Assembly (NCBI GenBank): GCA_004028765.1
Contig: SAIX01000038.1
Span: forward strand, 6,507 to 70,506
DNA length: 64,000 nucleotides
DNA from: Chitinophagaceae bacterium
GTDB lineage: Bacteria > Bacteroidota > Bacteroidia > Chitinophagales > Chitinophagaceae
Direction of reading: 5' to 3'
This document shows positions 4,887 to 57,811 of this stretch, one piece after another (the first letter of the stretch is position 1; each line of letters opens with the position of its first letter). The notes beneath the pieces were generated by a model. That model saw nothing but the letters and a program-made list of their open reading frames with translations, was not told the origin of the DNA and did no database searches. The translations under genes and the position numbers were made by a program.

Positions 4887-5085
4887 ACGTTATGGTTTTT
4901 TGATTTTAAGACTAAAGTGCAACACTAACATCGAGAACCATGCCATGCACCACTTGCAGGTCAAATTTTCAGAACCGGGCTACGGGTGCATTCGTGGGTC
5001 TTACATACTGTCAGAAAGCGCACAAAGATGGGGAAGTTTTTGAAACGGCCGTGTCAATTTTTCAGGCCGGCTCCCAAAGCCTTGC

Positions 5086-5110
5086 AATCCCCTAGCAGGG
5101 CAATTCCGTA
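5086..5110 (+). promoter_or_regulatory. Putative ECF-sigma promoter AATCC-N16-CGTA for the TPR lipoprotein
   Basis: AATCC 5086-5090, 16-nt spacer, CGTA 5107-5110, 18 nt before the ATG. Same architecture at 10886-10910 and 10960-10984. Confidence 0.7.
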
Positions 5111-5128
5111 TATAGGCAAATGCATTGC

Positions 5129-6415
5129 ATGAAAACCCTGGTACCCCTTTTCGCTTTTCTTGTTTCTGTTTCTTCCTGCCGGCCACCGGCTCCGCTGGCC
5201 GACCCTGTTTTTACAGACAGCCTGTTATCCATTCGCGGACTTGTTCCGCAGGTAAAAAGCCTCGGAAAAGACAGCCTCTTCTGGACCGAACGCCTCGGGA
5301 AGAGCGGGGATGCTTTCACGGCTTCATCCCGGCTTGCAGGCCTGTTTGTACAAAAATTCCAGCTCCAAGGGGATATGCGGGATCTTTTGAAAGCCGATTC
5401 CATTTACAGTAAACTTATCACAGATTACAAAGGAATGGATGCAGGGATACTCAGGTCGATGGCATCTTTACAGATCACAAGGCACCGTTTCAGGCAGGCC
5501 GATTCACTGGTATTAAAATCGCTGGCTTTGGGCCAGGAAAAATATACCGGAACGCTGCTGGCATTTGATACCAAATTTGAACTGGGTGAATATATTCTTG
5601 CGGAACACTTGTTAAAAGAATGTGCCGCCACCAACGAGTATGGTTATTTTTTCCGGATGGGAAAATGGATGCATTATAAGGGCTTGTCTGACAGTGCAGC
5701 CTGGTACCTGCAAAAAGCTGCCGATTGGGCCGGTACCAGCCCCTCCCTAAAACAGGCTGCTTTTTCCAACCTGGCCGATCTGTACCTGCACGATGGCAAA
5801 ATGAAAGAAGCTGCCATATTGTATAAAAGGGTACTCTCGCAAAACCCGGTGGATTTCCACAGCCTGAGAGGCTGGGGAAGGATCGCTTTGCTGCATGACC
5901 AAAACCCGGGCCTGGCTCAAAAAATATTTGACCATACGGCTACGATCAATGGATTGCCCGATCCATGGTACGACAAAATATGGGTGGCCGAAGAAAAAAG
6001 CGATACGGTTCTCGCCCGCAAAACGGCAGAAATTTTTGTGCAGAAAGCCAGCGACCCTGTATATGGCGCCATGTACCATAAATATCTATTTGAGCTGTAT
6101 ACAGGTGTCCTGAACCGGCCGGAGCCTGCACTTTCCATCGCTTTATCAGAAGTAAAAGAACGGCCAACACCGCAAACCTATGCATGGCTTGTTTGGGCTT
6201 TGCATAAAAATGGGAAAGAAGCGGCAGCAAAGGAATTGTACGATGAAAAAGTATCCGGGAAACCCCTGGAAGCACTTGAATTATTCTGGATGGGCAAGTG
6301 GATGAAAGAAAATGGCCAGGGATACAACGCATCTGCTTTTTTTAAAGCAGCAGAGCGAAACCTGTATGATCTCTCTCCATGGAAACAACAGGAATTAAAA
6401 TCATTTCTGTTGTAA
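5129..6415 (+). CDS. TPR-repeat lipoprotein
   Basis: MKTLVPLFAFLVSVSS-C lipobox; helical repeats with TPR-like A/G/Y spacing (AAFSNLADLYLHDGKMKEAAILYKRVL). Start moved to 5129. Confidence 0.8.
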   Translation: MKTLVPLFAFLVSVSSCRPPAPLADPVFTDSLLSIRGLVPQVKSLGKDSLFWTERLGKSGDAFTASSRLAGLFVQKFQLQGDMRDLLKADSIYSKLITDYKGMDAGILRSMASLQITRHRFRQADSLVLKSLALGQEKYTGTLLAFDTKFELGEYILAEHLLKECAATNEYGYFFRMGKWMHYKGLSDSAAWYLQKAADWAGTSPSLKQAAFSNLADLYLHDGKMKEAAILYKRVLSQNPVDFHSLRGWGRIALLHDQNPGLAQKIFDHTATINGLPDPWYDKIWVAEEKSDTVLARKTAEIFVQKASDPVYGAMYHKYLFELYTGVLNRPEPALSIALSEVKERPTPQTYAWLVWALHKNGKEAAAKELYDEKVSGKPLEALELFWMGKWMKENGQGYNASAFFKAAERNLYDLSPWKQQELKSFLL

Positions 6416-6592
6416 TACCAGCCACAGTTTTCATGGCATCTTCGTTGCATCGCAAACAGTTCAGCCACATATTTTCATGGCGGCGGGGAAAAGTTTACAT
6501 TGTTTACCCGGAAAAGCCATTGATGATGGTATTTCCGTTGGAAAAGGATTGGAGCATGAGAGAGAGAGGCAGCAGTAACTTTTATTATTCAG

Positions 6593-7276
6593 TTACACAA
6601 AAAATATCCTTTGTATTGTCCAGATGGCGGCAACCACGGCAATCAGAAAGGAGAGGGGTACCACAATTCTTTCCCGGTACCATTTTTTATGGGCAAACCA
6701 TTTGGCGAGCAAAAAGTAAGCGGCGAGAATGATGGTGAGTTGCCCCAGTTCAACGCCGATATTGAACATGATCAGCGAGAGGAAATATGCATTTTTTGGC
6801 AACCCCATATTGGCCAGTGCACCCGCAAAGCCCAAACCATGAATAAGACCGAACGCGAATACGATACCAAGCCTGGAGGTCTTAAGTCGGGGGGAATAGA
6901 TATTTTCTATCGCCACATATAATATTGATACCGCGATCAGTGGTTCAATGATCCGTGATGGCGGATTGATCACCTGGTAGGCAGCCAGGCAAAGTGTAAC
7001 GGAATGTGCAAGGGTAAAGGCGGTGGATTGTAAAACGATCGGCTTTAGTTTCGGGCTCAGTAAAAACAAACTCATTACAAAAAAAATATGGTCCAGGCCC
7101 AGCGGAAGAATGTGTTGAAAACCCAATACAAGGTACAGGGTTGCCGCATCGGTTTTACTGAGTTTATCCAGTTCCTGTACCGCTACATGTGCAGAAGCGG
7201 GAATTGCAACACTGCAAAATAAAAACAGCATCCCTGTTGCGGTGCGCCAGGATGCAGGTGAAAATCTTTTTTGCAT
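6593..7276 (-). CDS. HupE/UreJ-family membrane protein (candidate Ni/Co permease)
   Basis: Signal peptide ending PASA then His. Motifs GFQHILPLGLDH, FTLAHSVTL, FGLIHGLGFA, FNIGVELGQ. Start moved to 7276. Confidence 0.85.
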   Translation of the reverse strand: MQKRFSPASWRTATGMLFLFCSVAIPASAHVAVQELDKLSKTDAATLYLVLGFQHILPLGLDHIFFVMSLFLLSPKLKPIVLQSTAFTLAHSVTLCLAAYQVINPPSRIIEPLIAVSILYVAIENIYSPRLKTSRLGIVFAFGLIHGLGFAGALANMGLPKNAYFLSLIMFNIGVELGQLTIILAAYFLLAKWFAHKKWYRERIVVPLSFLIAVVAAIWTIQRIFFV

Positions 7277-7292
7277 TGCTATGTTGATGTTG

Positions 7293-9545
7293 CTAGAAAA
7301 ATACAGCGAATTTAAGTTTGACAAAGAAAGGCGTACCCGGTGTAAAATTCAATTCGGTTACCGGTGCGGCTTCGTTTTGTAAACGGGAAGTGGTGGCAAA
7401 TTGTGCCTCATTCCATTTTACATTAAAAAGATTTTCTATCGCCATCCCCAATTCATACCCCGGCATTGTATAATGAACAGCGGCATCGGTTACAAAGTAA
7501 CCTTTCGCAATGATGCTGTTGTCTTCATTCGCAGGCCGGTTTTGTATAAACCGATATGTAAGGCTCCCGTTGAGCCCGTATTTCCTTTTATAAAAAATTC
7601 CGCCCGTACTGCTGAAAGTGGGTGCAAGCGGTACAAAACTTTGTTCTTTAGCAGCATCCCGGTAACGGGGATCTGTAAAATTCAGATTGGTATTTACAAA
7701 CCAGTGACCGTTCAACTGGTATCGTGCAATGATATCGATCCCTTTGCGTACAGAACGTCCGCTGGGTTCTATCTTTCCTTCATCGCCCACATATACAAAT
7801 TCCTGGTCGAGTTGAAGATACCAGGCTGCCATAGTAAGGAATAACCTTGCTGTGGGTTTTAGTGTGATACCGATTTCCCCGCTATACGCGGCAGGCAGTA
7901 TCTCACGGCCTTCATTGGCAACCACAACGCGCGTATCATTGGAATGGAACCCCTTTCCGGCTTTGGCATACAACTGAGCATTTTTCGTAAGGGTGTATTG
8001 AAGATTGAATTTGGGGCTGAGCACCGATTTGTTTTGCGCAGGATCGGAAATTGCGGAAAGTTTATTGAAATATGCAAACCGCAGATGATCTAAACGCAAA
8101 CCTGCATCGATGAGCCAGCGTCCCGTTTTTATTTCTTTTTCAACAAAGCCAAAGGCATTGTATTCATTAATGTCGCCTAGAGCAACATGGTTCAGGAATT
8201 GCCTCTTTACCACATGATCCAGCCTGCTGTCGCGGATATCATCATAACGGATGCCGGTGCCATAATGGGTTGTAACCGTATAATCCCGTTTCACTTTTTC
8301 CGTGATCAGTGTTGAACTGAAGCCATACAGGTTCCTTTTTTCCGCCTGGTTGATCTCATCTCCATTCACAGGATCGTCCAGGAAAAATGTAAAATCAGAG
8401 TACAATGAAAACCGGTAGCGACTGGCATAAACCCGGTTTTCCCAGCGGGTATTGTTATTGAAGCGGTGTGTAAGCTGAAGATTAAGATTATAGCGCGCTG
8501 TGTTGCCGCCTTCTGAAGGATCAATCGCCCCAAAGCGGCTGATCATCCCATTTTCAACAGCGCGTTCCGGTACCTGGCCGGAAGCATCCCAACTGCTTTT
8601 AAATGCAGAAACGGATGCAGTAAATTGTGTACGGTCTGAAAAAGAAACATGGTATTTCCCAAACAGGTTCAAACGGCCAAAATGTTGTGCATGTTCGGTT
8701 GGACCGTTAGTAGCATAATATTCTCCGGCAAAATAAGCGCCTTGCTTTTCCTTGTTTTTTTTCAGCAGATCGAACATGCCTAAAAAACGGTAAGTGTCAA
8801 AACTTCCATATTCAAGCTGAACTCTGCTACCAGGTATATTCTGGTAAGTTGCAAATGATACATAGCCGGCTGTATTCAGGTTACCCTGGCGGGTATAATA
8901 CGGACCTGCACCAAAATCGATATTGTGAATGGTTTCCGGGATGATAAAATGGGCATCTGCATATCCCTGGCCATGCGCATGCGAAACCATGTTCACAGGC
9001 ATGCCATCAACGGATACCTGTATATCCGTTCCATGGTCACAATCAAAGCCGCGGAGAAAAATCTGTTCCGCCTTGCCGCCGCCCGCATGTTGCGCAACAA
9101 ATAAGCCCGGAACAACACGCATCAGTTCCTGTGTATTGCGAACGGGTTTGAGGTCGAGGTCAATTTTTGCGAGCGTATTGAATTTTCCATTGCTGCTGTT
9201 GCTCTGTGTAACCACCACTTCTTCGAGGTTTACAATATCCGGTTGAAGTGCGATAGGTGTTTGCAGGATACTGTCTGATGATATTTTTTTTGCCCTGTAC
9301 CCAACGGCACTGATGAGCAGCCATTCGTTTTTTTCAGGCTTCGGGATCCGGAAACGTCCGTCTGCATCACTGATCACCAAAATCCCTTTTGTATTGGCCG
9401 GATGAATGGAAACCGATTCGAGTGCCTGTTTGCTTACAGCATCAATCACCCTTCCTTCCAGTATGGTTTGTGCACCTGTTTTATTGCAAATGCTTAACAA
9501 TACAAAGAAGCACAGGGTGGCCGCCGTAATCGCTTTTCGCTTCAT
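7293..9545 (-). CDS. TonB-dependent receptor with N-terminal carboxypeptidase-regulatory-like domain and His-rich plug
   Basis: Signal peptide; LEGRVIDAVSKQALESV N-domain; plug motifs QHAGGGKAEQIFLRGFDCDHGTD and NMVSHAHGQGYAD; IENLFN box; C-terminal Phe. Confidence 0.9.
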   Translation of the reverse strand: MKRKAITAATLCFFVLLSICNKTGAQTILEGRVIDAVSKQALESVSIHPANTKGILVISDADGRFRIPKPEKNEWLLISAVGYRAKKISSDSILQTPIALQPDIVNLEEVVVTQSNSSNGKFNTLAKIDLDLKPVRNTQELMRVVPGLFVAQHAGGGKAEQIFLRGFDCDHGTDIQVSVDGMPVNMVSHAHGQGYADAHFIIPETIHNIDFGAGPYYTRQGNLNTAGYVSFATYQNIPGSRVQLEYGSFDTYRFLGMFDLLKKNKEKQGAYFAGEYYATNGPTEHAQHFGRLNLFGKYHVSFSDRTQFTASVSAFKSSWDASGQVPERAVENGMISRFGAIDPSEGGNTARYNLNLQLTHRFNNNTRWENRVYASRYRFSLYSDFTFFLDDPVNGDEINQAEKRNLYGFSSTLITEKVKRDYTVTTHYGTGIRYDDIRDSRLDHVVKRQFLNHVALGDINEYNAFGFVEKEIKTGRWLIDAGLRLDHLRFAYFNKLSAISDPAQNKSVLSPKFNLQYTLTKNAQLYAKAGKGFHSNDTRVVVANEGREILPAAYSGEIGITLKPTARLFLTMAAWYLQLDQEFVYVGDEGKIEPSGRSVRKGIDIIARYQLNGHWFVNTNLNFTDPRYRDAAKEQSFVPLAPTFSSTGGIFYKRKYGLNGSLTYRFIQNRPANEDNSIIAKGYFVTDAAVHYTMPGYELGMAIENLFNVKWNEAQFATTSRLQNEAAPVTELNFTPGTPFFVKLKFAVFF

Positions 9546-9576
9546 GGCTGTTTGAAAAGGTTGTATTTGAGGTATT

Positions 9577-9616
9577 AAACAGGAAGCAGTTGCATACTAG
9601 CAGTTGCTTCCTGTTT
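9577..9616. terminator. Long stem-loop between the DUF4331 genes and the TonB-dependent receptor
   Basis: AAACAGGAAGCAGTTGC-ATACTA-GCAGTTGCTTCCTGTTT. The U-tail is short in the operon (-) direction and longer in the + direction. Confidence 0.65.
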
Positions 9617-9624
9617 TATTTTAT

Positions 9625-10170
9625 TTACCAGGGGGTCGCAAGATAAGGGAACACGCTCAGAAATGCTTTGTCATTCGCACTCACTTTATCGGAAGTAAGC
9701 CCGGGATTGGCAGCACCGTTAGGACCGCCAAAAATGAGCAGTAATTCGGTATCGATCACATCATCTCCCAAAGCCCTTCCGGTAAGCACATTGGTGCCAT
9801 CAAAAAAAGTGGTGGTACCCGTTGTGGAAACTGTAAGTACATCTGTTGCGAGCACACCGGTAAAGGCTGATGCAGAAAGGCCAAGCGCATTGGTGGTGTA
9901 TCCGGGGTTCAGTCCAAGCAGCCTTGCCTGGAATTTGGATTGAAATGCCGCGCCCATTGCGGAAGGCACAGTAGTGTTGAACAGATCTTTGTCGGCACCG
10001 AGGTTAAACACGGTGTTAATAGCAGGTCGGGCCATCTGGTCTTCCGTTTGGTAAGTTACATTGGCAAATACATCTACTGTGGTTGCAGTATCTTTTTTAC
10101 AGGAGGAGAACAGCATCAGTGCTGAAATTAATCCAAAACCTGCTGTGCGTATATTCTTGGTTGTTTTCAT
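9625..10170 (-). CDS. DUF4331-type lipoprotein (resembles the C-terminal half of long DUF4331 proteins)
   Basis: Lipobox LFSS-C; motifs EDQMARPAINTVF and TGRALGDDVIDTELLLIFG; ends FPYLATPW. Start moved to 10170. Confidence 0.75.
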   Translation of the reverse strand: MKTTKNIRTAGFGLISALMLFSSCKKDTATTVDVFANVTYQTEDQMARPAINTVFNLGADKDLFNTTVPSAMGAAFQSKFQARLLGLNPGYTTNALGLSASAFTGVLATDVLTVSTTGTTTFFDGTNVLTGRALGDDVIDTELLLIFGGPNGAANPGLTSDKVSANDKAFLSVFPYLATPW

Positions 10171-10192
10171 CTTACTTGATTTTGAGTGGTTA

Positions 10193-10846
10193 TTAAATTT
10201 TTCTTTTTGCTTCAGCCCAAACATTCACTTTGCCATTGGTGGCACCCAGTAATGATTTGGGGAATTCCAGTACGATGCTCATTACATTGGTTCCTTTGAA
10301 GCTGTCGTTTCCGGGATTATTGAAAGAAGTTGCAGTTCCGGCAAGGATTTTTTTGAACTGGTCGAGGTCAAAAAAGAAAGGATCATCTCTCGGGCCGGCA
10401 AATGCCATAAAATTATTCTGTGAGGCGATGATGGCATTCTGTCCGTACGGAGTTACCCCCACGCTGATGGTTTGTGCACCTTCCACCACACTCTTACTGC
10501 CTGTCATTGAAGGCTTAATGGGGCCATAAACATACATGGTATTATTGTTGAACACACACTGTACCACCAGGTCTTCCACATTGTCACCATTGTTATCGAT
10601 GTTGAGTTCGATCATGGTGTTGTTGTCGAATGCGGCAGAAGCCGTTGCAGATGGTGTGAGCAGGCCCTGTGTGTTGATAACAAAAGCCATGTTGTTTGTG
10701 TTTTGTCCCTGGAAAGCATATACATCCGTGATATCGGTTGTTTTACCGGTAACAGCGGGTGTGTCGGCGTGGTCGGCTGCCATTACGATGCCTGCGGTGA
10801 TAAGACAGGCGCCCAGCAGGGCGAACAGGATTTTTTTTGTTTTCAT
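10193..10846 (-). CDS. DUF4331-family secreted protein (resembles the N-terminal half of long DUF4331 proteins)
   Basis: Sec signal peptide then ADHADTP; DITDVYAF; FAGPRDDPFFFDL; FKGTNVMSIVLE. Confidence 0.8.
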   Translation of the reverse strand: MKTKKILFALLGACLITAGIVMAADHADTPAVTGKTTDITDVYAFQGQNTNNMAFVINTQGLLTPSATASAAFDNNTMIELNIDNNGDNVEDLVVQCVFNNNTMYVYGPIKPSMTGSKSVVEGAQTISVGVTPYGQNAIIASQNNFMAFAGPRDDPFFFDLDQFKKILAGTATSFNNPGNDSFKGTNVMSIVLEFPKSLLGATNGKVNVWAEAKRKI

Positions 10847-10885
10847 ACTGTTGATTTTAATTTTTTTAAGATATGTGCTGAGAAA

Positions 10886-10910
10886 TACGAAGCGTTTTTC
10901 CCGCCGGATT
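10886..10910 (-). promoter_or_regulatory. Putative ECF-sigma promoter AATCC-N16-CGTA for the DUF4331-TBDR-HupE operon
   Basis: Minus strand: AATCC (10910-10906), 16-nt spacer, CGTA (10889-10886), 39 nt before the ATG. Confidence 0.7.
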
Positions 10911-10959
10911 TGATTTTCTGCGAATTATTTTTTTTTTCAAAAAAAAGTGGCTGCACATA

Positions 10960-10984
10960 AATCCGAATGAAAAAGCCTGCCGTA
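10960..10984 (+). promoter_or_regulatory. Putative ECF-sigma promoter AATCC-N16-CGTA, divergent, driving a small RNA candidate
   Basis: AATCC 10960-10964, spacer GAATGAAAAAGCCTGC, CGTA 10981-10984. Confidence 0.65.
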
Positions 10985-10989
10985 TATGC

Positions 10990-11130
10990 GTCGTTGAAAA
11001 GGAAACCTGCTTACCCGCTTTTACGGAATGTGCAGGATGGTGGTTCATGCAAATGCATTGTAAACCAATCTGCCTTTTCGTAAGGTTGTATCAAGGTTGA
11101 AACCCGTCCGTTCCCGGACGGGTATTTTCA
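10990..11130 (+). ncRNA. Candidate structured small RNA (or 17-aa small ORF at 11047-11100)
   Basis: Bounded by the ECF-like promoter and a 9-bp terminator stem, with internal hairpins at 11006-11036 and 11041-11067. No long ORF. Ends are approximate. Confidence 0.5.
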
Positions 11131-11134
11131 TTTT
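11102..11134 (+). terminator. Intrinsic terminator of the sRNA candidate
   Basis: ACCCGTCCG-TTCC-CGGACGGGT followed by ATTTTCATTTT. Confidence 0.7.
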
Positions 11135-11162
11135 GCTCCCGCGGCTGAAAACAATATCTTTG
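11132..11162 (+). promoter_or_regulatory. Bacteroidota sigma-A promoter of the nusB operon
   Basis: TTTG (11132-11135), 19 nt, TATCTTTG (11155-11162): canonical -33/-7 geometry. Confidence 0.75.
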
Positions 11163-37116: not shown

Positions 37117-37767
37117 TCATCCCTTCTTCAACTTATTCTTAAACACTTTTTCAAACTTCTCCACCTTGGGTTGTATCACAAACCGGCAGTATCCCTGGCC
37201 TGGGTTATCGTTGTAATAATTCTGGTGATAGTTTTCAGCCGGATAGAAATTTTTAAATGGCTCAATCGTTGTTACAATAGGTTTATCCCAGGCACCGCTT
37301 TTATCGAGTTTGGCTTTGTACTCCTCGGCTTTGCGGCGCTGTTCTTCATTGTGGTAAAATACCACGCTGCGGTATTGGGGGCCAACATCATTGCCCTGGC
37401 GGTTCATCGTGGTAGGGTCATGGGTTTTCCAGAATACCTCGAGCAATTCATCATAGCTGATCTTTTTGGGATCATAGATAATACGTGCCAGTTCGGCGTG
37501 ACCGGTATTTTTATCACACACTTCTTCATAGGTCGGGTTTTCCACATGCCCGCCGCCGTAGCCGCTCACTACTTTGTATACCCCATCTAGTCTTTGAAAA
37601 AAAGCTTCGGTGCACCAGAAACAGCCTTCCCCAAAAGTGGCTGTATCGGTATGTACCCCTGCGGGGATGTTTTCTTGATTCATCATAGCTAAATTCTTTT
37701 CTTTTTTAGGTTGTGCGCAGGCTGTGAAAGCAGCACATACCAGGATTGCCGGCAACCAGGTTCGCAT
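37117..37767 (-). CDS. msrA: Peptide-methionine (S)-S-oxide reductase, lipoprotein
   Basis: GEGCFWC, SGYGGG, GHAE, HDPT, AENYHQNYY; lipobox FTA-C. Confidence 0.95.
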   Translation of the reverse strand: MRTWLPAILVCAAFTACAQPKKEKNLAMMNQENIPAGVHTDTATFGEGCFWCTEAFFQRLDGVYKVVSGYGGGHVENPTYEEVCDKNTGHAELARIIYDPKKISYDELLEVFWKTHDPTTMNRQGNDVGPQYRSVVFYHNEEQRRKAEEYKAKLDKSGAWDKPIVTTIEPFKNFYPAENYHQNYYNDNPGQGYCRFVIQPKVEKFEKVFKNKLKKG

Positions 37768-37788
37768 TGCAAAATGTTTTTCTAAAAT

Positions 37789-37813
37789 TACGGTAATGAT
37801 TTACAAACAGATT
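37789..37813 (-). promoter_or_regulatory. Near-match ECF-like promoter AATCT-N16-CGTA upstream of msrA
   Basis: Minus strand: AATCT (37813-37809), 16 nt, CGTA (37792-37789), 21 nt before the ATG. One mismatch to the motif. Confidence 0.5.
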
Positions 37814-56863: not shown

Positions 56864-57811
56864 ATGTCAGCAGAGGTTTCAGAAAAAGTACATGTATTGA
56901 TCATCGGTTCGGGTCCTGCAGGGTATACGGCCGCTATTTATGCAGCCAGGGCGAATATGAAACCCGTTTTATACCAGGGTATCCAGCCCGGCGGGCAATT
57001 AACAATAACAACCGAAGTAGAGAATTATCCAGGCTACCCGGAAGGCATACAGGGCCCTGAAATGATGGTGCATTTTGAAAAACAGGCCGCAAGGATGGGA
57101 GCGGATATCCGTTACGGGCTTGCGACAAAAGTGGATTTCAGCCAGCAGCCATACAAGGTTTGGATCGATGATGAGAAACTGATTGAGGCTGATGCAGTGA
57201 TTATCTGCACAGGCGCCTCTGCCAAATGGCTCGGATTGCCAAGTGAGCAGAAGCTGAATGGTTTTGGGGTAAGTGCCTGCGCAGTTTGTGATGGTTTCTT
57301 TTTCCGAGGGAAAGAAGTCGCGATCGTGGGAGCCGGTGATACTGCAGCGGAGGAAGCCTTATATCTTTCCAAACTCTGTACAACGGTTCACATGCTGATC
57401 CGGAAAGATAAAATGCGTGCCAGCAAAGTGATGCAGGATCGTGTGTTGCATGCACCCAACATCAAAGTGTACTGGAATACGGAGACAGAAGAAATACTGG
57501 GCGAACAGAAAGTGGAAGCCATGCGTATCCGCAATAACCAGACGAATGAAACACAGGAAATTCCCATCAGTGGTTTTTTTGTTGCGATAGGCCACCAACC
57601 CAATTCAGATATTTTCAAAGGCTGGATTGATATGGATGAAACCGGGTATATCCTTACACAACCCGGCACTTCTAAAACAAATGTGGAAGGGGTGTTTGCT
57701 GCAGGTGATGTGCAGGACAAAAATTACCGCCAGGCTGTAACTGCTGCCGGCAGTGGCTGTATGGCCGCACTTGATGCAGAAAGATATCTCAGTGCAAAAG
57801 GGATCGTGTGA
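56864..57811 (+). CDS. trxB: Thioredoxin-disulfide reductase
   Basis: IIGSGPAGYTAA, SACAVCDG, VGAGDTA, FAAGDVQD. Start moved to 56864; TATTTTTG at 56833-56840. Confidence 0.97.
   Translation: MSAEVSEKVHVLIIGSGPAGYTAAIYAARANMKPVLYQGIQPGGQLTITTEVENYPGYPEGIQGPEMMVHFEKQAARMGADIRYGLATKVDFSQQPYKVWIDDEKLIEADAVIICTGASAKWLGLPSEQKLNGFGVSACAVCDGFFFRGKEVAIVGAGDTAAEEALYLSKLCTTVHMLIRKDKMRASKVMQDRVLHAPNIKVYWNTETEEILGEQKVEAMRIRNNQTNETQEIPISGFFVAIGHQPNSDIFKGWIDMDETGYILTQPGTSKTNVEGVFAAGDVQDKNYRQAVTAAGSGCMAALDAERYLSAKGIV

Follow-up and report, generated by a model that had tools for sequence, protein, structure and literature searches.

We analyzed a stretch of 64,000 nucleotides from a Chitinophagaceae bacterium (contig SAIX01000038.1; referred to here as the window) and propose that one SigK-like ECF sigma factor likely reads three promoters in it, which precede a TPR lipoprotein gene, a DUF4331N-DUF4331C-TBDR-HupE operon and a predicted sRNA. 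The account, held at this same strength as a whole, includes the sRNA and counts as exact-motif regulon members the sigma/anti-sigma operon, the DUF4331N-HupE operon, the TPR gene, a fasciclin gene and the gene of a small secreted protein on contig C33. The three AATCC-N16-CGTA sites reported in a preliminary description of this DNA, at 5086-5110 (+), 10886-10910 (-) and 10960-10984 (+), are exact. The envelope gene cluster and its promoters comprise:

5086..5113, plus strand: SigK-type ECF promoter of the TPR lipoprotein gene (exact AATCC-N16-CGTAtaT)
5129..6415, plus strand: TPR lipoprotein (signal MKTLVPLFAFLVSVSSC; alternative ATG at 5120; weak TPR Pfam matches of the translation)
6593..7276, minus strand: HupE/UreJ-2 inner-membrane permease (PF13795, 1.4e-45; 228 residues)
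7293..9545, minus strand: TonB-dependent outer-membrane receptor, TBDR (Pfam CarboxypepD_reg, plug and barrel)
9579..9614, minus strand: intra-operon hairpin with a 10-bp stem between the DUF4331C and TBDR genes (sequence reading)
9625..10170, minus strand: DUF4331C, a C-terminal-half lipoprotein (MKTTKNIRTAGFGLISALMLFSSC; PF14224 profile positions 253-421; own signal peptide)
10193..10846, minus strand: DUF4331N, the secreted N-terminal half (PF14224; ADHADTP directly after the signal peptide)
10883..10910, minus strand: SigK-type ECF promoter of the DUF4331N-DUF4331C-TBDR-HupE operon (exact motif)
10960..10987, plus strand: SigK-type ECF promoter of the sRNA (exact motif; back-to-back with the operon promoter)

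A reading of the two DUF4331 frames as one frameshifted gene was rejected, since the second frame has its own lipoprotein signal peptide. The AlphaFold2 model of DUF4331N is a beta-sandwich (pLDDT 81), for which no fold match was found in the PDB. The hairpin upstream of the receptor gene is possibly an attenuator or stability element. At the same junction, relatives carry hairpins, extra genes or secondary ECF promoters.

The earlier list of three motif copies in the window was correct as far as it went. It had overlooked a fourth, which lacks the CGTAnnT extension:

57113..57137, minus strand: chance copy of AATCC-N16-CGTA, antisense within a thioredoxin-reductase-like gene (trxB), with CGTAacG

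Four copies compare with 0.32 expected, and none of 100 shuffles reached this number. Chance was nevertheless considered as an explanation for the three sites, either as occurrences of a motif of just nine bases within AT-rich intergenic DNA or as a by-product of an unrelated intergenic heptamer repeat, AATCCGY. The motif had been picked post hoc, and its total at N16 (27 copies in the 3.7 Mb genome, coding DNA included) is not above the counts for other spacings (13-36); arrays of the heptamer create intergenic matches that inflate the control spacings N13-15 and N21-22. However, no N16 site lies within a heptamer array, and eight of the 27 copies are promoter-placed, i.e. in the right orientation and with a gene or RNA 7-113 nt downstream, compared with 0-1 at most control spacings. 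All eight share positions that had not been selected for: the T of CGTAnnT, an A or C before AATCC and a C or T before CGTA. Coding regions had been left out of the preliminary description; with these counted, 10-11 of the 27 copies are intergenic, although intergenic DNA makes up only ~7% of the genome. The extended, relaxed form AAWCY-N16-CGTANNT occurs exactly four times in the window (0.39 expected), every time promoter-placed. The regulon motif is (A/C)AATCC(G)-N15-(C/T)CGTAnnT.

This motif is retained in other families. Among 63 Bacteroidota and Armatimonadota loci, it stands upstream of DUF4331N in strict form in 36 and in relaxed form in 19. The genes for DUF4331N, DUF4331C, TBDR, HupE and the TPR protein are syntenic in ~60 loci from several Bacteroidota families, in agreement with the proposal that the five form one system; for the TPR gene, synteny with the DUF4331 and HupE genes holds in ~45 loci. 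The convergent TPR gene had been thought to be co-regulated, and in many lineages it indeed has its own A(T/A)C(C/T)-N16-CGTAnnT promoter, with AATCC, AATCT, CATCC or AAACC as the -35 element. Detached TBDR genes with their own ECF motif were found at three loci (L061, L069 and L072). Given this conservation ahead of orthologous genes, and likewise ahead of the sigma gene, the chance explanation is effectively refuted, and we regard it as extremely improbable.

A cognate sigma factor and an RskA-like anti-sigma factor had been predicted to lie outside the window. We located such a pair at C84:13357-14677:

C84:14135-14677: SigK-like ECF sigma gene (Sigma70_r2 and r4_2 domains)
C84:13357-14133: RskA-type membrane anti-sigma gene (RskA_C), directly downstream of the sigma gene

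The genome encodes no RskA_C protein besides this anti-sigma factor, and it holds a single SigK-like ECF sigma/RskA pair. The sigma gene is preceded, at a distance of 31 nt, by a copy of the motif, and in a genome-wide scan no other sigma gene had the motif in its own promoter. The sigma/anti-sigma operon, with its exact motif, is counted as a member of its own regulon. This autoregulatory promoter is retained in 14/14 close relatives; upstream of the sigma gene of four more distant ones (G018, G017, G026 and G003) the motif was not seen. The best PDB match of the sigma factor is SigK from Mycobacterium tuberculosis (4NQW, 3.3e-18), and its best NCBIfam match is the SigK subfamily, with a score under the family cut-off.

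The same pair was sought near DUF4331 genes in relatives and is present there. In a relative of the same genus (G018), the genes for sigma, anti-sigma, DUF4331N, DUF4331C, TBDR and HupE are contiguous and followed by the convergent TPR gene, with the motif between the anti-sigma gene and DUF4331N. In seven further loci the sigma and anti-sigma genes are divergent from DUF4331N, and a fasciclin gene adjoins in three loci. Split DUF4331 genes were limited to genomes with the RskA pair (3/3, compared with 9/31 overall).

The preliminary description had called the promoter type undescribed. The motif is indeed ECF-type, as it autoregulates an ECF sigma gene here and fits the ECF18 consensus of the ECF Hub, GCATCC / CGTAT (quoted in PMC13492112), but the type is the known one of ECF18/19 (SigK). 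The minimal cassette of the SigK/ECF18/ECF19 clade is mpt83(fasciclin)-sigK-rskA (PMC7509140, PMC7826278). Our system resembles it in the RskA_C anti-sigma gene directly downstream of the sigma gene, in the match to 4NQW, in autoregulation, and in a fasciclin gene with the sigma factor's promoter. It differs from the clade in its host, a member of the Bacteroidota, in the sub-threshold NCBIfam score, and in a sigma factor without cysteines; a redox cysteine pair is found in 94% of the members of ECF18 and in 56% of those of ECF19. The regulon is also dominated by the DUF4331-TBDR-HupE-TPR module and includes the predicted sRNA, neither of which we found described for SigK systems.

The sites could be genuine ECF promoters and yet be read by another ECF sigma factor, or by several that cross-talk. 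Bacteroidota carry many ECFs, a CGT-type -10 element is common to several ECF groups, including a described 'promiscuous' group (PMC13492112), the AAACC variants of the -35 element look like generic ECF 'AAC' motifs, and for one promoter assigned below (msrA) the conserved sequence around the -35 element is longer and distinct. Against this stand the restriction of the motif to the promoter of the C84 sigma gene among sigma genes, the agreement with the ECF18 consensus, and the orthologous sigma/RskA pairs that neighbor genes for DUF4331 or fasciclin, separated from them by the motif, fasciclin being the classic, hallmark target of SigK (PMC7509140). We consider a different reader very unlikely and assign the sites to the C84 SigK-like factor.

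Outside the window, the fasciclin gene carries the motif in the source genome and in three others (G003, G017 and G197), and the C33 gene has an exact copy. Three assignments are less certain: a lipoprotein on C60, whose own motif has CGTT for CGTA while its orthologues are exact, and a small Cys/His-rich secreted protein (C8) and a TlpA/DUF547 operon (C69), both with an exact motif in the source genome only. A further candidate lies in the window:

37786..37813, minus strand: AATCT-N16-CGTAatT, a candidate distal promoter of the regulon that precedes the msrA gene by 19 nt
37117-37767, minus strand: exported MsrA gene

This promoter is kept in 8/9 relatives of the clade that has the sRNA and is absent in G017, G018 and G003. 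The exported MsrA probably belongs to the regulon.

The third site in the cluster was thought to drive a hidden RNA. A promoter and a terminator are both conserved there, and we predict the following elements:

10991..11134, plus strand: predicted ECF-dependent sRNA of ~140 nt, divergent from the operon, with a putative start ~7 nt after CGTA
11079..11102, plus strand: conserved seed of the sRNA, CGUAAGGUUGUAUCAAGGUUGAAA, with complementarity to the sigma mRNA in the leader and start region
11103..11134, plus strand: intrinsic terminator, CCCGUCCG-UUCC-CGGACGGG followed by a U-tract
11133..11162, plus strand: nusB promoter of the Bacteroidota housekeeping type, TTG-N19-TAtcTTTG, located after the terminator and kept in relatives

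Alignments of relatives show a variable 5' body, the conserved 3' seed and the terminator, whose stem has compensatory changes (GUUCG/CGAAC, CAUCCG/CGGAUG and GUCUG/CAGAC). The predicted RNA has a minimum free energy of -51.4 kcal/mol (z = -4.07), and a search of Rfam returned no family for it. It occurs in 15 of 101 genomes of one genus, and all holders of the sRNA have the sigma factor. The ECF promoter, 64-143 nt upstream of the terminator, is kept in 11/14 genus relatives; three holders of the sRNA have no exact match.

The sRNA appears to pair with the sigma factor's own mRNA. Computed duplexes of seed and sigma leader range from -18 to -29 kcal/mol in 15/15 genomes, and stability is greater for cognate than for non-cognate pairs (p = 3.5e-4). 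As a target, the sigma start region ranks 1/3221 in the source genome and among the top 1.3% in 14 of the 15 genomes. A match to the receptor mRNA is not conserved. Taken together, the retained pairing, the first rank and the cognate advantage suggest a direct feedback loop in which the sRNA probably restrains the sigma mRNA.

Alternatively, the RNA might not act in trans: it could be an ECF-driven leader or attenuator for read-through into nusB, or a terminated divergent by-product, with its complementarity a functionless relic. In every genome that has the RNA, nusB follows immediately; the 5' body is not conserved, and the occurrence is limited to one clade. Since the sRNA block and the nusB-DUF4331 adjacency co-occur, synteny cannot tell the two possibilities apart. 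Yet the strong terminator is followed by a separate nusB promoter, matching the housekeeping-type Bacteroidota consensus, and both are conserved. The conserved part is a single-stranded segment of 24 nt plus the terminator, a typical sRNA layout; the sigma start region is the retained, cognate-favored target, whereas the nusB start region (rank 1533) is not a predicted one. A cis-acting or functionless RNA is thus unlikely in our judgment, and a trans-acting sRNA is preferred.

The sigma-E sRNAs of enterobacteria (MicA, RybB and MicL) likewise have an ECF promoter and an intrinsic terminator and form the repressing arm of the envelope stress regulon. They repress porin and Lpp mRNAs, need Hfq, and lower sigma-E activity only indirectly, whereas the best predicted target of our short RNA is the sigma mRNA itself. 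The sRNA, as predicted, also resembles UdsC of Rhodobacter sphaeroides, which depends on an RpoHII promoter and binds the 5' UTR of rpoHII mRNA, interpreted by its authors as a negative feedback loop (PMC9779115). In contrast to our system, RpoHII is of the sigma-32 type and not an ECF, UdsC derives from a 3' UTR, and its host is an alphaproteobacterium with Hfq.

Regarding the function of the envelope proteins, the motif (A/S)DHxDxP follows the signal peptide in 63/67 DUF4331N orthologues, and the predicted mature N-terminus of the permease, after ...PASA, is a histidine. Anglerase-HupE/UreJ-2 permeases and N-terminal-histidine metal-capture proteins, e.g. DUF4198 and DUF6702, have been described by Franco Cairo et al. 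(Nat Commun 2025, PMC12537917). Our PF13795 permease with its N-terminal His, the secreted partners with a conserved His near the processed N-terminus and the neighboring TonB receptor are similar. In contrast to those systems, the permease is short and has neither an Ang-1 nor an Ang-2 domain; the capture role would fall to the separate DUF4331 and TPR proteins, and the predicted DUF4331N histidine is at position 3 (x-D-H) instead of 1.

The module may instead respond to envelope stress or provide detoxification (under oxidative, thiol or copper stress). Envelope repair or protection would then fall to the DUF4331, TPR, fasciclin, TlpA-like and MsrA proteins, with HupE and TBDR as accessories. 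The TlpA/AhpC-like redoxin-DUF547 operon and the Cys/His-rich protein with their exact motifs, the variant site of msrA, the periplasmic CxxxC in RskA of the sRNA clade and the ties of M. tuberculosis SigK to redox sensing (PMC7826278) point in this direction. A TonB-dependent receptor with a HupE/UreJ-2 permease is, however, an import architecture, the N-terminal His and x-x-His ends are features of metal capture (PMC12537917), and beyond the sRNA clade the redox genes are not retained in the regulon. We view a primarily defensive role as possible but doubtful and favor metal uptake.

Based on these results we propose the following mechanism. A signal in the periplasm would free the sigma factor from RskA. 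The receptor would import a trace metal through the outer membrane, its periplasmic handling would be the task of DUF4331N, DUF4331C and the TPR lipoprotein, and HupE/UreJ-2 would move it over the inner membrane. By pairing with the sigma mRNA from ~-21 to ~+10 relative to its UUG start codon, the sRNA would lower translation of this mRNA, and the response would thereby be under direct negative feedback. Judging by family names and N-terminal motifs, this conserved yet unstudied envelope gene set probably serves trace-metal capture or uptake.

A pattern search of the window for AATCC-N16-CGTA, a candidate ECF promoter, agreed with the three copies of the preliminary description and returned a fourth. 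Four copies compare with 0.32 expected from shuffles, and this count was reached in 0 of 100 shuffles. The window carries genes for groEL, groES, a TPR lipoprotein, a HupE/UreJ-2 protein, a TonB-dependent receptor (TBDR), two DUF4331 half-proteins (DUF4331N and DUF4331C) and nusB. The motif copies are located as follows.

5086-5110, (+) strand: motif copy before the TPR lipoprotein gene
10886-10910, (-) strand: motif copy before the DUF4331N-DUF4331C-TBDR-HupE operon
10960-10984, (+) strand: motif copy before a predicted small RNA (sRNA)
57113-57137, (-) strand: fourth copy, antisense within a thioredoxin-reductase-like gene

The genome (3.7 Mb, 140 contigs) contains 27 copies. Copies with other spacings are no rarer, and the count peaks at N13-15 and N21-22 come from unrelated intergenic AATCCGY heptamer arrays. 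On a rough gene map of crude longest-ORF calls, 10-11 of the 27 copies are intergenic, though intergenic DNA makes up only ~7% of the genome; eight are correctly oriented and placed 7-113 nt 5' of a gene or RNA. All eight of these promoter-placed copies share positions that were not part of the search: the T of CGTAnnT, an A or C ahead of AATCC, and a C or T ahead of CGTA. When the pattern is relaxed and extended to AAWCY-N16-CGTANNT, the window holds exactly four matches (0.39 expected), all promoter-placed, namely the three reported sites and one 5' of an exported MsrA gene.

This genome has many arrays in intergenic DNA in which a unit of 7-8 nt (AATCCGY, AATTCGT) is repeated in tandem; they are distinct from the N16 promoters. 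Examples, by contig, are:

C105:7660-7682
C107:123834-123856
C22:6304-6326
C56:131493-131515
C127:7075-7104

In the groES-TPR intergenic region (4990-5060, (+) strand), an element GTGTCAA(A/T)TTTTCA is located 5' of the TPR promoter. It is kept in close relatives and may be part of the divergent groES promoter.

The cognate sigma factor had been predicted to lie outside the window and to be linked to an RskA-like anti-sigma. Such a pair is found on contig C84, where a motif copy is located 31 nt 5' of an ECF sigma gene (C84:14135-14677), followed by an RskA_C anti-sigma gene (C84:13357-14133) and a VanZ-like gene. The sigma factor has 180 aa and consists of regions 2 and 4 only (group IV; Sigma70_r2 5e-15, Sigma70_r4_2 3e-12, Sigma70_ECF). 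Its best PDB match is M. tuberculosis SigK (4NQW, 3.3e-18), and among NCBIfam models NF007228 (SigK subfamily) scores best, with 122.9 bits, under the cut-off of 226. The anti-sigma, whose gene abuts the sigma gene, is the sole RskA_C protein of the genome; it matches PF10099 above cut-off (1.8e-16), in keeping with the RskA type (RskA_C domain, one TM helix). Its periplasmic RskA_C domain bears a C-x-G-L-C sequence, which is conserved only within the sRNA-bearing clade and missing in more distant orthologues.

The promoter type had been proposed as undescribed. This part of the proposal falls, since the ECF18 consensus of the ECF Hub (-35 GCATCC, -10 CGTAT, tabulated in PMC13492112) already matches (A/C)AATCC-N16-CGTAnnT; CATCC variants occur among relatives. 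SigK systems, including Gram-negative ones, have as their known core a cassette of fasciclin (mpt83), sigK and rskA in which the SigK site is conserved (PMC7509140). Here, a secreted fasciclin gene (1e-33) carries the exact motif. Fasciclin adjoins the sigma/anti-sigma pair in the relative G017 (sigma, anti-sigma, AAACC-N16-CGTAaaT, fasciclin) and carries the motif in two others, G003 and G197. The autoregulatory motif 5' of the sigma gene is present in 15 of 15 close genomes, in all of which its -35 element overlaps the gcvH stop codon (ggaTAAatcc; C84:14678-14735, relatives L123-L136). The downstream RskA_C gene, the predicted fasciclin target, the predicted autoregulation and the promoter all resemble SigK/RskA (ECF18/ECF19). 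Unlike most members of these groups, the C84 sigma factor contains no cysteine in its 180 residues, whereas the redox pair (Cys133/Cys183 in Mtb SigK) is found in 94% of ECF18 and 56% of ECF19 (PMC7509140). We regard the system as a Bacteroidota version of a known type, SigK/RskA (ECF18/19-type); the subgroup to which it belongs may, together with its motif, already have an entry in the ECF Hub.

For comparison we used 66 loci from a scan of species-representative genomes, originating from Chitinophagaceae (including Sediminibacterium-labelled MAGs, 81-90% identity), Mucilaginibacter, Flavobacterium, Puia, Chryseolinea, Roseivirga and Armatimonadota. In this set, the arrangement DUF4331N-DUF4331C-(TPR)-TBDR-HupE-(TPR) recurs across Bacteroidota, with fasciclin adjacent in three loci. 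Before DUF4331N, ATCC-N16-CGTA is conserved in 36 of 63 cases, and a relaxed form (AAACC, or N15/N17) is found in 19 further ones. TPR or TBDR genes that are separately transcribed carry their own copy of the motif. A sigma/RskA-like pair is divergently adjacent to the DUF4331 genes in seven loci and contiguous with them in G018, which belongs to the same genus. There, the order is sigma, anti-sigma, AATCC-N16-CGTAcaT, DUF4331N, DUF4331C, TBDR, HupE and a convergent TPR gene with its own CATCC-N16-CGTAtaT. All three genomes with split DUF4331 also have an RskA pair, compared with 9 of 31 overall. Promoter and synteny support the initial interpretation of a single ECF-driven envelope gene set. 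In two close relatives, an exact motif is conserved for sigma, fasciclin, the DUF4331 operon and the sRNA, and also for a small secreted protein like that on contig C33 and a lipoprotein like that on C60. Two exact-pattern matches in G017 (L026, L030) lie antisense inside paralogous, antitoxin-like short genes starting MTEIIIDKK... and were rejected as false positives.

Both DUF4331 halves score above the gathering score of PF14224: DUF4331N with 94.8 bits (profile 134-237 in its best stretch, with 2-85 matched in addition in the genome search) and DUF4331C with 41.7 bits (profile 253-421). A single frameshifted gene was rejected as an explanation of the pair on two grounds: the second ORF starts with a lipoprotein signal of its own, and ~60 loci keep the split. 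Directly after the signal peptide, DUF4331N contains the sequence (A/S)-D-H-x-D-x-P in 63 of 67 orthologues. Its AlphaFold2 model is a confident β-sandwich (pLDDT 81), for which Foldseek returned no hit in the PDB at E < 0.04 or TM > 0.3; a PDB sequence search gave no match and our literature search no mention of DUF4331. The HupE/UreJ-2 protein (PF13795, 1.4e-45) would begin with a histidine, the first residue after a cleavage site placed by eye (...IPASA|HVAVQ). N-terminal-His capture proteins fused to or beside HupE/UreJ-2 permeases bind Ni and Cu, and those of the anglerase type carry a β-sandwich Ang domain of ~175 aa between signal peptide and permease (PMC12537917). Our protein resembles them in its permease domain, would also do so in an N-terminal His if cleaved at this site, and differs in having neither Ang-1 nor Ang-2. 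It comprises 228 aa, and its Pfam domain begins near residue 48 of the trimmed sequence, which leaves only ~15 residues between signal peptide and first TM helix.

In the proposed arrangement, the TonB-dependent receptor would be located in the outer membrane, DUF4331N as a soluble protein and DUF4331C and the TPR protein as lipid-anchored ones in the periplasm, and the HupE/UreJ-2 permease in the inner membrane. This receptor-periplasm-permease layout probably fits import. Within the operon, the DUF4331C-TBDR junction shows the following feature.

9579-9614, (-) strand: hairpin with a 10-bp stem between DUF4331C and the TBDR gene

In relatives, this junction is occupied by terminator-like hairpins, by secondary ECF promoters or by one additional gene of ~150-170 aa (MLTRTLLYLLL...HVH).

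Further motif sites in this genome precede genes of other kinds.

37117-37813, (-) strand: exported MsrA gene (lipoprotein signal) with an AATCT-N16-CGTAatT promoter
C8:31703-32015, (-) strand: exact motif 5' of a 72-aa Cys/His-rich secreted protein
C69:6958-9728, (-) strand: exact motif 5' of an operon for an AhpC/TlpA-like redoxin fused to DUF547, an AhpD-like CMD protein and a radical-SAM/DUF3641 protein

The msrA promoter, with a longer GTCAA(T/A)CTGTT context, is kept in eight of nine members of the closest clade and not beyond, and the chances that the gene belongs to the regulon are about even. These three apparently clade-specific sites suggest an envelope redox or metal-stress theme, either as an alternative to import or in addition to it. 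For a YceI-like gene, the motif is seen in two relatives and is absent here. One-mismatch matches before ppk, lspA, tal, a TetR gene and others were set aside as probably due to chance.

The preliminary description had also placed a hidden RNA behind the third motif copy. Motif and terminator are indeed conserved in relatives; the RNA itself is predicted from sequence.

10991-11134, (+) strand: predicted sRNA of ~140 nt
11079-11102, (+) strand: conserved segment of the sRNA (seed)
11103-11134, (+) strand: strong intrinsic terminator

The sRNA promoter stands back-to-back with the operon promoter at a -35 to -35 distance of 49 bp. It is followed by an ORF-poor stretch, the terminator and the nusB promoter TTG-N19-TAtcTTTG, which follows the Bacteroidota consensus. 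The RNA has a folding z of -4.07, no Rfam family at gathering or E-value threshold, and no conserved ORF in an alignment of its body across holders. Among 101 genomes of the genus, 15 contain its 3' block, which is otherwise practically absent from the family; every holder has the sigma/RskA pair. An exact A(T/A)CC-N16-CGTAnnT is located 64-143 nt 5' of the hairpin in 11 of 14 relatives. The 5' body is free to vary in sequence and length (72-181 nt); conserved are a segment of ~24 nt (...AAGGUUGUAUCAAGGUUGAG...) and the terminator, whose stem shows compensatory changes. A boxA-like reading of CUUUAAGCAA 5' of nusB was dropped because this segment is not conserved across the clade.

Duplex energies were compared between the seed and the start region of each of the 3221 rough gene calls. 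The ECF sigma start region ranks third when the clade consensus seed is used, and first of 3221 with the seed of this genome itself (-26.3 kcal/mol; background -12.8 +/- 3.3). The sigma leader is 26-37 nt long, and the predicted pairing extends from about -21 to about +10 relative to the conserved UUG start. Such pairing is predicted in 15 of 15 genomes (-18 to -29 kcal/mol) and falls within the top 1.3% of the natural background in 14 of them. Cognate seed/leader pairs reach -22.9 kcal/mol compared with -20.8 kcal/mol for non-cognate ones (permutation p = 3.5e-4). These energies with natural-background and permutation controls served as the test; column-wise covariation counting on the concatenated seed/leader alignment was given up because bulges shift the register between lineages. 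Matched changes are listed below.

Matched seed and leader changes by genome
G236: GGUUAG in the seed with CUAACC in the leader
G217: AAGCAGGGU with ACCCUGCUU
G000 (this genome): CGUAAGGUUGUA with UACAACCUUCG
G199: GCAGAGC with GUCUGC

Neither nusB nor other regulon genes were predicted as targets among the 3221 start regions. The TBDR leader (9557-9566, (-) strand) contains a perfect 10-nt complement to the seed (ATACAACCTT), 12-22 nt before the ATG; we treat regulation of TBDR as unproven because it ranks only 118 of 3221 and the match is absent in relatives.

An ECF-dependent sRNA paired in this way would occlude the start region of its own sigma factor's mRNA, and negative feedback is the likeliest reading of the predicted duplexes. 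The conserved UUG start lies in or beside a small hairpin, so that activation of sigma through opening of this hairpin by the sRNA is conceivable as well. Negative feedback of this kind has a precedent in UdsC/RpoHII of Rhodobacter, which involves another sigma class (PMC9779115). By prediction, the RNA shares with sRNAs of the MicA/RybB type a sigma-dependent promoter of its own, an intrinsic terminator and conserved seed pairing near the start codon. To our knowledge, Bacteroidota are generally thought to be without Hfq.

Taken as a whole, the model is one that we consider roughly evenly balanced between right and wrong: a SigK-type ECF factor would drive an sRNA whose 3' seed pairs with the sigma's own translation-initiation region, and would control a phylum-spanning split DUF4331/TPR/TBDR/HupE module that imports trace metal via N-terminal His 'hooks'. 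The system also comprises a clade-specific predicted sRNA that would close a feedback loop on the sigma mRNA. We found no description of the target set (split DUF4331, TPR lipoprotein, TonB receptor, HupE/UreJ-2) in the literature. The signal and physiological role of SigK/RskA-type sigmas are open even in M. tuberculosis (PMC7509140). In the Bacteroidota branch, promoter as well as synteny links a SigK-type sigma with a defined module of the import type, and trace-metal capture offers a concrete hypothesis for this sigma family and for the large DUF4331 family. If true, the predicted sRNA would feed back directly on the mRNA of an ECF sigma, which is rare, and would offer, with covarying seed/leader pairs at hand for mutagenesis, a tractable case of trans-acting RNA regulation in Bacteroidota.
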